A stretch of 41,441 nt of DNA from the IMG/VR virus record IMGVR_UViG_2541047739_000012. One strand, 5' to 3'. Each line of letters begins with the position of its first letter. The first letter of the stretch is position 1. The position numbers and the translations under genes were made by a program. Below are positions 24,950-25,297 of the stretch, piece by piece. Origin of the DNA: a virus. Taxonomy: Duplodnaviria; Heunggongvirae; Uroviricota; Caudoviricetes. A model generated the notes under the pieces. That model was not told the DNA's origin, made no database searches, and saw nothing but the letters and a program-made list of their open reading frames with translations.

Positions 24950-25024
24950 TGGAGCGGGCAGCGGGAATCGAACCCGCATCATCAGCTTGGAAGGCTGAGG
25001 TAATAGCCATTATACGATGCCCGC
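24950..25024 (-). tRNA. tRNA-Gly (anticodon UCC)
   Basis: 75-nt minus-strand cloverleaf: acceptor GCGGGCA/TGCCCGC, anticodon arm TCAGC-CTTCCAA-GCTGA, T-arm GCGGG-TTCGATT-CCCGC, encoded CCA. Confidence 0.85.
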
Positions 25025-25027
25025 ATA

Positions 25028-25103
25028 TGGTGCCGACTACCGGAATCGAACTGGTGACCTACTGATTACAAGTCAGTTGCTCTACCTACTGAGCTAAGTC
25101 GGC
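25028..25103 (-). tRNA. tRNA-Thr (anticodon UGU)
   Basis: 76-nt cloverleaf: acceptor GCCGACT/AGTCGGC, D-arm GCTC-AGTAGGTA-GAGC, anticodon arm ACTGA-CTTGTAA-TCAGT, T-loop TTCGATT, encoded CCA; one A-C mismatch in the T-stem. Confidence 0.8.
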
Positions 25104-25105
25104 AC

Positions 25106-25182
25106 TGGACCGCCACCGGGGACTCGAACCTCGCACACTCAACTTAAAGGGTTGACGCTCTTTCCTGATGAGCTAGTGGCGG
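25106..25182 (-). tRNA. non-canonical tRNA-like gene (anticodon UUU by fold; identity uncertain)
   Basis: 77-nt cloverleaf with perfect 7-bp acceptor stem, anticodon arm TCAAC-CCTTTAA-GTTGA, T-loop TTCGAGT and encoded CCA, but C at position 33, a 5' C, an atypical D-loop and a T-stem mismatch. Confidence 0.5.
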
Positions 25183-25183
25183 T

Positions 25184-25259
25184 TGGTGGCCCTTGCTGGA
25201 TTTGAACCAGCGACCTGGCGATTATGAGTCGCTCGCTCTCACCACTGAGCTAAAGGGCC
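25184..25259 (-). tRNA. tRNA with CAU anticodon (elongator Met or lysidine-type Ile2)
   Basis: 76-nt cloverleaf: acceptor GGCCCTT/AAGGGCC, D-arm GCTC-AGTGGTGA-GAGC, anticodon loop CTCATAA, T-arm GCTGG-TTCAAAT-CCAGC, CCA; G1-C72 pair excludes an initiator. Confidence 0.8.
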
Positions 25260-25268
25260 GGGCGCAGG

Positions 25269-25297
25269 ATAATAACGTTACGAAATCAATGTTGCAA
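25269..25297 (-). promoter_or_regulatory. sigma70-type promoter driving the tRNA array
   Basis: Minus strand: -35 TTGCAA (25292-25297), 17-bp spacer, -10 TATTAT (25269-25274); predicted start 1-3 nt upstream of the first tRNA 5' end at 25259. Confidence 0.5.

Follow-up and report, generated by a model that had tools for sequence, protein, structure and literature searches.

A prophage tRNA operon derived from the ileZ-argN-argO cassette of Stx phages, with a UUU-anticodon tRNA on an arginine-tRNA body

Shiga toxin (Stx) phages of the Sakai Sp5, 2851 and 933W type carry a cassette of three tRNA genes, ileZ-argN-argO, that lies after Q, pR' and tR' and before stx or the lysis genes. Here we describe an array of four tRNA genes at the same site in IMGVR_UViG_2541047739_000012, a 41,441-nt stretch of viral DNA (hereafter the window, meaning the whole stretch analysed) that is a lambdoid (lambda-like) prophage of Escherichia coli. 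Clusters of tRNA genes that have a promoter to themselves in the late region of a lambdoid phage are essentially known biology, annotated in hundreds of genomes, and the array is a common variant of the Stx-phage cassette. Its unusual part is the second gene, here called LysL, a tRNA with the anticodon UUU that has been rebuilt from an arginine tRNA.

Two other systems provide background. Phage T4 is virulent and carries a cluster of packed tRNA genes, expressed as a polycistronic precursor that is resolved by RNase P and 3' trimming; its tRNAs have all diverged from those of the host, and several have no encoded CCA. As for changes of anticodon, Saks et al. reportedly converted, in 1998, the E. 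coli tRNA-Arg(UCU) to tRNA-Thr(UGU) function by changing its anticodon.

The carriage of tRNAs by temperate phages is debated, with codon matching on one side and evasion of tRNA-cutting defences on the other, and this one operon bears on both. Three members of the array fit codon matching, and two of them are exact host copies, so no evasion is possible through these. LysL does not fit codon use, and it differs from the host tRNA-Lys exactly where known nucleases read. We give a probability of about 70% to the reading that the array is a self-contained tRNA operon, carried as late-region cargo of a lambdoid prophage and derived from the Stx-phage cassette ileZ-argN-argO, in which three tRNAs supply codons and LysL comes from argN. 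The parts worth following are the arginine-to-lysine switch with its C33 and a possible link to tRNA-targeting defences.

The four tRNA genes and the remodelling of argN

All four genes lie on the minus strand and were called both by ARAGORN and by the Rfam tRNA model, whose gathering score is 29 bits. They are, in order of transcription, tRNA-Ile2 with the anticodon CAU (25259-25184; 72.5 bits), LysL with the anticodon UUU on the body of argN, a tRNA-Arg(UCG) gene (25182-25106; 44.4 bits), tRNA-Thr(UGU) (25103-25028; 73.8 bits) and tRNA-Gly(UCC) (25024-24950; 64.9 bits). The Rfam E-values range from 2e-6 to 2e-14, CCA is encoded in every one of the four genes, and the spacers between them measure 1, 2 and 3 nt. 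A preliminary description of this DNA, made from the letters alone, had proposed four real tRNA genes with these anticodons, the second as UUU-like, set 1-3 nt apart, and had named tRNA predictors as the means of checking them; with both predictors accepting all four structures, that proposal stands.

Of 5426 complete E. coli genomes, 346 contain the whole array with its flanks, and in these the NCBI Prokaryotic Genome Annotation Pipeline (PGAP) labels the genes tRNA-Ile, -Lys, -Thr and -Gly. It is also present in the induced or isolated phages vB_EcoM-606R7, vB_EcoS-689R5 and PhiR47_1; in the deposited annotation of vB_EcoM-606R7 the Lys-type gene, although intact, is lacking. A set of genomes with one representative per species yielded the diagnostic Lys-type sequence in E. 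coli and Shigella flexneri only.

The sequence of gene 1 is, base for base, that of ileZ in the Stx2c phage 2851 and in Sakai Sp5, and it agrees with K-12 ileX at 68 of 76 positions, including the acceptor stem GGCCC.../...GGGCC. In E. coli, the TilS identity pairs C4:G69 and C5:G68 separate tRNA-Ile2 from tRNA-Met (PMC11947777). Gene 1 carries both pairs and is therefore read as the AUA-decoding tRNA-Ile2, with CAU read as lysidine-AU, and not as tRNA-Met; PGAP names it tRNA-Ile. The conversion of C34 to lysidine and charging with isoleucine are predicted. Genes 3 and 4 reproduce K-12 thrU (76/76 identical) and glyT (75/75 identical) exactly, and because of this identity they can add gene dosage only, and no new decoding capacity. 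A variant of the tRNA-Gly gene in which C6-G67 has become U6-A67 is present in 11 other loci.

When about 125 loci are compared, the arrays fall into a series: Ile2-Arg(UCG)-Arg(UCU), Ile2-Lys(UUU)-Arg(UCU) and Ile2-Lys-Thr-Gly. The first two members of the series have in common a 13-nt spacer before argO, and the intermediate, in which LysL occupies the argN slot and Arg(UCU) is retained, is found in PPompW prophages. The locus thus offers a natural, stepwise arginine-to-lysine change of anticodon whose intermediates are still present in other prophages. By its sequence the array is a derivative of the ileZ-argN-argO cassette; it is not a strict member, since gene 2 has UUU and not UCG and since argO has been replaced by copies of thrU and glyT. 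The preliminary description had set the array apart from the Ile/Arg/Arg set of Stx phages. The sets do differ, but they are not independent, gene 1 being ileZ and gene 2 an allele of argN with a changed anticodon.

LysL, in the argN slot, shares 65 of its 77 positions with the argN of phage 2851 and differs at the other 12. Three of the substitutions fall in the anticodon loop, and they are accompanied by compensatory changes in the stem, where G30-C40 has become A-U and U27.G43 has become U-A. The resulting cloverleaf has C1-G72, C16, an anticodon stem of UCAAC (27-31) with GUUGA (39-43), an A51.C63 mismatch and U73, and its anticodon loop reads C32-C33-U34-U35-U36-A37-A38. Over 11 distinct argN and LysL sequences, pairing is retained in 95.7% of cells, where slid controls give 29-54%, and in three pairs both partners have changed. 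LysL would thus have arisen from argN by remodelling of the anticodon arm, from UCG to UUU. Set beside the host lysT, it shares none of the 10 anticodon-stem positions and six of the seven loop positions. C33 is present in all 124 sampled copies of LysL, among which the anticodon arm is nearly invariant.

The major determinants of lysyl-tRNA synthetase (LysRS) are U34-U35-U36, and A37 provides the context for N6-threonylcarbamoyladenosine (t6A). LysL has the anticodon and the A37 of a tRNA-Lys; it departs from one in having U73 for A73, C33 for the universal U33 and an argN-like body. We consider that LysL is most probably charged with lysine. Its low Rfam score is a property of the scaffold, because argN of phage 2851 scores much the same (43.0 bits); the Sakai argN2 reaches 54.8 bits. 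A scan of viral contigs for other anticodons on the argN/LysL scaffold gave none with a purine at position 35 and otherwise a single GCG, anticodons of the forms UCH and UUV with U34 not having been scanned separately. With so nearly empty a result, the scaffold is essentially two-state, UCG and UUU.

LysL is present in 798 of the 5426 complete E. coli genomes (about 15%), and in 279 of them (about 5%) the copy has at least 99% identity. The window carries the intact main allele, which is also that of the isolated phage 606R7. Two other alleles that are common look non-functional, one through a 1-nt deletion in the D stem and the other through the combination of C4U, U8C and C11U, and PGAP calls neither. 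Such common degenerate alleles suggest relaxed constraint.

Promoter, leader and trailer

Differential RNA sequencing (dRNA-seq) by Sy et al. placed a primary start site of the tRNA-driving promoter within an interval of the Sakai Stx2a prophage (PMC7547250). That interval contains TTGCAG-17-TATTAT, and a dedicated cassette promoter is therefore already on record for the Stx counterpart; before ileZ2 in Sakai Sp5 the sequence reads TTGCAG-17-TATTAT-CCTGCGCCC. In the window, a sigma-70-type promoter occupies 25269-25297 on the minus strand, with a -35 hexamer TTGCAA (25297-25292; 4/6 matches to consensus), a 17-nt spacer and a -10 hexamer TATTAT (25274-25269; 5/6 matches). It is followed by a G+C-rich discriminator and short leader of 9 nt, CCTGCGCCC (25260-25268, minus).

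Nine diverged types of upstream sequence precede the same tRNA in different loci, and in these the mean pairwise identity is 100% for the -10 hexamer and 80% for the -35 hexamer, falling to 51% for the spacer and to 31% for the 30 nt upstream of the -35. The TTG of the -35, the TATTAT and the 17-nt spacing are invariant in all nine types, eight of which have 9 nt, and one 10 nt, between the -10 and the tRNA. From these fixed hexamers and spacing, and from the Sakai Sp5 counterpart, the near-consensus sigma70 promoter claimed by the preliminary description is very probably real, and by homology it would serve as a dedicated promoter in the window prophage. Transcription would start at about 25261-25263, which is 6-8 nt after the -10 and 2-4 nt before the mature 5' end of the first tRNA. 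The earlier claim had been a start 1-3 nt before that tRNA, so that the promoter sequence and spacing were borne out and the predicted leader comes close to what was claimed.

The tRNA promoter is distinct from pR'. In relatives, which have three or four different types of Q (of 229 aa, of 273 aa and of the Q21 type with 162 aa among them), a Q-specific region, a tR'-like terminator and about 85 conserved nt come, in that order, before the tRNA promoter, and in phage 2851 both pR' and tR' are clearly separate from it and upstream of it. The tR'-like terminator of strain S51 and of phage 606R7 is an 8-bp G+C-rich hairpin with a U-run (z = -3.3 and -2.7). Its counterpart in the window, located by alignment at 25378-25398 on the minus strand, is eroded, with z = +0.7 and no stable hairpin, and given this erosion upstream transcription may read into the tRNAs in the window prophage. 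In the relatives the terminator has the form CCCGC-loop-GCGGG followed by a U-run (positions 2985-3010 of our locus L002 and 2983-3008 of L126).

Some further features of the upstream region were seen. Upstream of the -35 (25298-25330, minus) there is a tandem duplication, GGTGATTTTT(AACCA)GGTGATTTTT, one copy of which is absent in PPompW. A ATTTAATCAGG-like motif recurs 15-35 nt upstream of the -35 among otherwise diverged upstream types, and it may be an UP-element or a regulator site. A derivation of the phage promoter from that of host ileX was considered and dropped, since the alignment needs a 4-nt gap and the host TTGCGA lies only 13 nt from the -10; this homology is ambiguous, and we make no claim of it. 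In S51 a 36-aa 'antiterminator' coding sequence is annotated a short way upstream of the tRNA promoter, from which that promoter might have been a remnant of a Q gene or pR' itself, and this too was rejected, as the translation is not Q-like and the open reading frame (ORF) is not conserved. That coding sequence (L002 2961-3071), which spans the terminator and leader region, looks spurious.

Between the tRNA-Gly gene and the holin gene lies a structured trailer of 225 nt (24723-24947, minus), with a predicted fold of -79.5 kcal/mol (z = -4.8). It contains three perfect hairpins with stems of 11, 16 and 9 bp, and it ends in CCGC-UUUU-GCGG followed by U6 (24740-24723), a small hairpin of -6.6 kcal/mol. 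The trailer region is present, unannotated, in 530 complete E. coli genomes, and no Rfam family matches trailer or leader even at E = 1. Variation in the hairpins is low: of 138 paired columns 9 vary, of 97 unpaired ones 15, and double changes are absent. For that reason covariation is uninformative here. A constitutive tRNA promoter directly upstream of the holin gene calls for a barrier, and the trailer is probably a terminator or insulator that keeps transcripts from the tRNA promoter out of the lysis genes; it could also be the source of a small RNA derived from the 3' trailer.

On our preferred reading, then, one precursor would carry Ile2(CAU), the UUU tRNA, Thr(UGU) and Gly(UCC), each to be cut free by RNase P and trimmed at its 3' end, and the hairpin-rich trailer with its small terminator would stop tRNA transcripts before the holin gene. 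After induction, Q-modified late transcription would also read through the operon, as is expected from its position between Q and the lysis genes. The most likely role of Ile2, Thr and Gly would be to add supply for AUA, ACA/ACG and GGA/GGG codons, both in the lysogen and in lytic growth.

Codon supply, decay and counter-defence

The preliminary description had asked that codon use in the phage late genes be set against host tRNA abundance for the codons read by the array. Per 1000 codons, the late genes of the phage, with coordinates set by an ORF heuristic, were compared with 42 K-12 genes: ATA stood at 6.8 in the phage and 2.4 in K-12, ACA at 12.6 and 5.4, ACG at 25.1 and 12.1, GGA at 12.7 and 6.0, GGG at 17.7 and 9.2, and AAA at 31.6 and 34.0. 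The AUA, ACA/ACG and GGA/GGG codons are thus enriched about 2-3-fold in the phage genes, and AAA is not. The enrichment of ATA, ACA, ACG, GGA and GGG is in keeping with a supplementing role of Ile2, Thr(UGU) and Gly(UCC). As to lysine, the E. coli host has six tRNA-Lys(UUU) genes, three of which were seen here. With AAA not enriched and several host tRNA-Lys(UUU) genes at hand, codon supply does not explain LysL, and codon matching is only a partial explanation of the array. If the promoter is constitutive, lysogens gain copies of the minor tRNAs Ile2, Thr(UGU) and Gly(UCC), which could raise the expression of acquired A+T-rich genes.

Several findings weigh against the preferred reading. The codons most over-used by the phage are AGA, AGG and CGG, at 3.6- to 7-fold over the K-12 genes (ORFs 584-24657 and 27140-40408), yet both arginine tRNAs have been lost, which is a poor fit to pure codon matching; the lack of AAA enrichment points the same way. 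The match of the promoter to consensus is by itself at chance level (three sites with a 9/12 hexamer match in 3.3 kb, where shuffles give 5.7), the pR' of the 122-aa Q was not located, with weak candidates only in 25555-25300, and the start site, processing and termination in the window prophage are all deduced from its sequence. Prophage copies of the Thr and Gly genes elsewhere carry scattered point changes, which suggests weak constraint. LysL itself is atypical, with C33, U73, a T stem that contains the A.C mismatch and a score of no more than 44 bits. Its copy is a variant of 95-99% identity in 474 of the 798 genomes, PGAP annotates none of the six sampled variants of 96-97%, and the allele of PPompW (L128 3132-3207) is below the Rfam threshold for tRNA.

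The points that concern LysL also speak for the alternative that it is a decaying argN pseudogene with a drifted anticodon, in which case only Ile2, and perhaps Thr and Gly, would matter and the array would in part be junk that travels along with the late region. LysL has the lowest Rfam score of the four genes, its main allele accounts for 69 of 124 sampled copies, whereas that of Ile2 accounts for 110 of 121, and alleles with the D-arm deletion or with U8C are common. Drift would nevertheless have had to produce, with three loop changes, a perfect C32..UUU-A37-A38 loop together with two compensatory changes in the stem. Moreover, LysL has gained better acceptor pairs relative to argN of phage 2851, its anticodon arm has stayed near-invariant over the 124 copies, the window allele scores no worse than that argN, and in hundreds of genomes PGAP labels it tRNA-Lys; the isolated phage 606R7 carries it too. 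We consider decay unlikely, though of the alternatives it is the one that we take most seriously. A different doubt is whether the promoter-like sequence is used at all, or whether the tRNAs come only from a Q-dependent late transcript that is processed after induction. The chance-level hexamer match and the location of the operon within the late transcription unit would allow this, but TTG-N3, the 17-nt spacing and TATTAT have been held invariant in nine types with flanks that retain about 31% identity, and a primary start site is reported for the Sakai counterpart. In addition, relatives have a terminator ahead of the promoter, and were this promoter idle the tRNAs would be deprived of transcription in lysogens. 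We therefore regard an unused promoter as improbable.

Next after decay, and likewise unlikely in our judgement, comes the proposal that the array, or at least LysL, sustains translation when tRNA nucleases of host or satellite origin (PARIS AriB, PrrC/RloC, P2 OLD) destroy the tRNAs of the host, LysL being a tRNA-Lys that would go unrecognized by these enzymes. AriB of PARIS cuts host tRNA-Lys(UUU) between C40 and A41 and needs U39, and changes at A41 or U16 impair it (PMC12409363); phage T5's tRNA-Lys escapes AriB through A39, C41 and C16 (PMC12409363, PMC11464382). PrrC cleaves 3' of U33 (PMC2610378). At positions 39-41 LysL has G, U and U where the host has U, C and A, and it has C for U both at 16 and at 33, so that it differs from host tRNA-Lys at positions read by AriB (39, 41 and 16) as well as at the PrrC site. 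The main targets of AriB are Lys(UUU) and Thr(UGU). The tRNAs that suffer the strongest depletion by P2 OLD, which restricts lambdoid phages and is the classical system for excluding lambda, include Thr(UGU) and Gly(UCC) (bioRxiv 10.64898/2026.07.10.737580). Three of the four array members are thus prime nuclease targets, an overlap with a chance of about 0.01 by a rough post hoc estimate, and a Lys(UUU) tRNA that codon supply leaves inexplicable would find a use. Against this, the Thr and Gly tRNAs are identical to those of the host and hence cleavable, and over-expression of E. coli Thr(UGU) failed to rescue phages from OLD (bioRxiv 10.64898/2026.07.10.737580). The overlap of targets may merely reflect a shared focus of phages and defences on tRNAs for A-ending codons, many copies of LysL look degenerate, AriB needs contacts beyond the cleavage site, so that insensitivity of LysL is a prediction, and LysL may just be a poor tRNA by reason of its C33 and U73. 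A more specific form of the proposal is more speculative and less probable again: LysL would be a cleavage-proof, constitutively expressed lysine tRNA that keeps the phage, and incidentally the lysogen, translating under PARIS, PrrC/RloC or similar tRNA-Lys nucleases, and the swap of argO for Thr and Gly would be a second step in an arms race against TOPRIM tRNases such as PARIS and P2 OLD. If that were true, an anti-defence tRNA borne by a prophage, and made by anticodon switching and not by divergence of a tRNA-Lys, would be present in some 5-15% of E. coli genomes. One further alternative involves translation of the prophage's own tail genes. The upstream tail-assembly-chaperone ORF ends ...GTT AAA AAA AAG TAG (14178-14169, minus), and the downstream chaperone ORF (14157-13867, minus) lies in the -1 frame. 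The lambda-type slippery site GGGAAAG is absent from this junction, which has A AAA AAG instead and so points to a programmed frameshift of the dnaX type rather than to lambda's G GGA AAG. Frameshifting of the dnaX type is based on slippage of tRNA-Lys(UUU) on AAG, and LysL might tune the -1 frameshift at a site that tRNA-Lys(UUU) reads twice. The reasoning is at the level of coincidence, and with host tRNA-Lys abundant a single, weakly built competitor would have little effect; we hold this to be very improbable.

Prophage setting and comparison with known systems

The gene order in the window is DUF968, RusA, Q, three opposite-strand ORFs, the tRNAs, holin, YdfR, lysozyme, Rz, and HK97-like head and tail genes. 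The antiterminator Q, of 122 aa (27508-27140, minus), is recognized by Pfam PF06530 (E = 5e-52) and is annotated as Q in a near-identical locus. The first lysis gene downstream of the tRNAs encodes a class II (P21-type) holin (24657-24442, minus; Pfam PF04971, E = 1e-35), again with an annotation in a near-identical locus. The preliminary description was right to place the tRNAs between Q and the lysis cassette, with the qualification that Q lies 1.9 kb upstream and that the three opposite-strand ORFs intervene; these, of 293, 87 and 142 aa, span 25556-27104 on the plus strand at 40% G+C. No Pfam domain is recognized in the product of the 293-aa ORF, which resembles phrog_3243 and, at E = 4e-27, the PADLOC phage-defence candidate PDC-S42; this ORF may be a defence gene carried as extra late-region cargo. 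The three-ORF insert is missing in relatives such as 606R7, whose Q abuts the tRNA leader. In 606R7, PPompW, Evi, 2851 and Sp5, too, the tRNA genes are placed between Q and stx or the lysis genes.

The best match to the window among complete E. coli genomes has 90% coverage and 98.5% identity, and none matches end to end. Elsewhere in the window, Rfam recognizes an IS009 RNA (44-242), a sok antitoxin RNA (30194-30369), DicF (35999-36050) and a tRNA-Ser(CGA) (40461-40550). The last of these adjoins a 341-aa ORF (39383-40408) and would be the prophage end and attachment site if that ORF is an integrase.

The closest described system is the ileZ-argN-argO cassette. The window array has an identical first gene and a homologous second gene, a terminator, a probable one in the window, follows the array in both, and the promoters are homologous, with TTGCAA or TTGCAG, 17 nt, TATTAT and 9 nt to the tRNA. 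It differs in that gene 2 has UUU for UCG, a remodelled stem and C33, in that copies of thrU and glyT stand in place of argO (UCU) with the spacers cut to 1-3 nt, and in that no stx lies downstream. The replacement genes are base for base the Thr(UGU) and Gly(UCC) genes of the host operon thrU-tyrU-glyT-thrT, from which the window lacks tyrU, thrT and the host flanks, the two genes being placed under the phage ileZ promoter. The 3-nt spacer between them, TAT, could be what remains (T + AT) after a deletion of tyrU and its spacers, a likeness of three bases only. With the T4 cluster the array has in common its close packing and, on our reading, release from a shared precursor; in contrast to that cluster, all four tRNAs of the window encode CCA and two are exact copies of host genes.

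As in anticodon switching of the type described by Saks et al., LysL has a new anticodon on an old body and presumably a new identity, since the synthetase reads the anticodon. LysL differs in being natural and phage-borne, in going from arginine to lysine, and in combining three loop changes with compensatory stem changes; its function is presumed. The tRNA-Lys(UUU) of T5 is, like LysL, a phage-borne UUU tRNA that differs from the host's at positions 39, 41 and 16, and in both cases host tRNA-Lys is plentiful. The T5 molecule is a diverged tRNA-Lys with A73 and U33, whereas LysL is the body of an arginine tRNA with U73 and C33, and T5 is a virulent phage with more than 20 tRNAs, whereas the phage of the window is temperate and has four. 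Resistance and rescue have been demonstrated for the T5 tRNA-Lys; for LysL resistance is a prediction.

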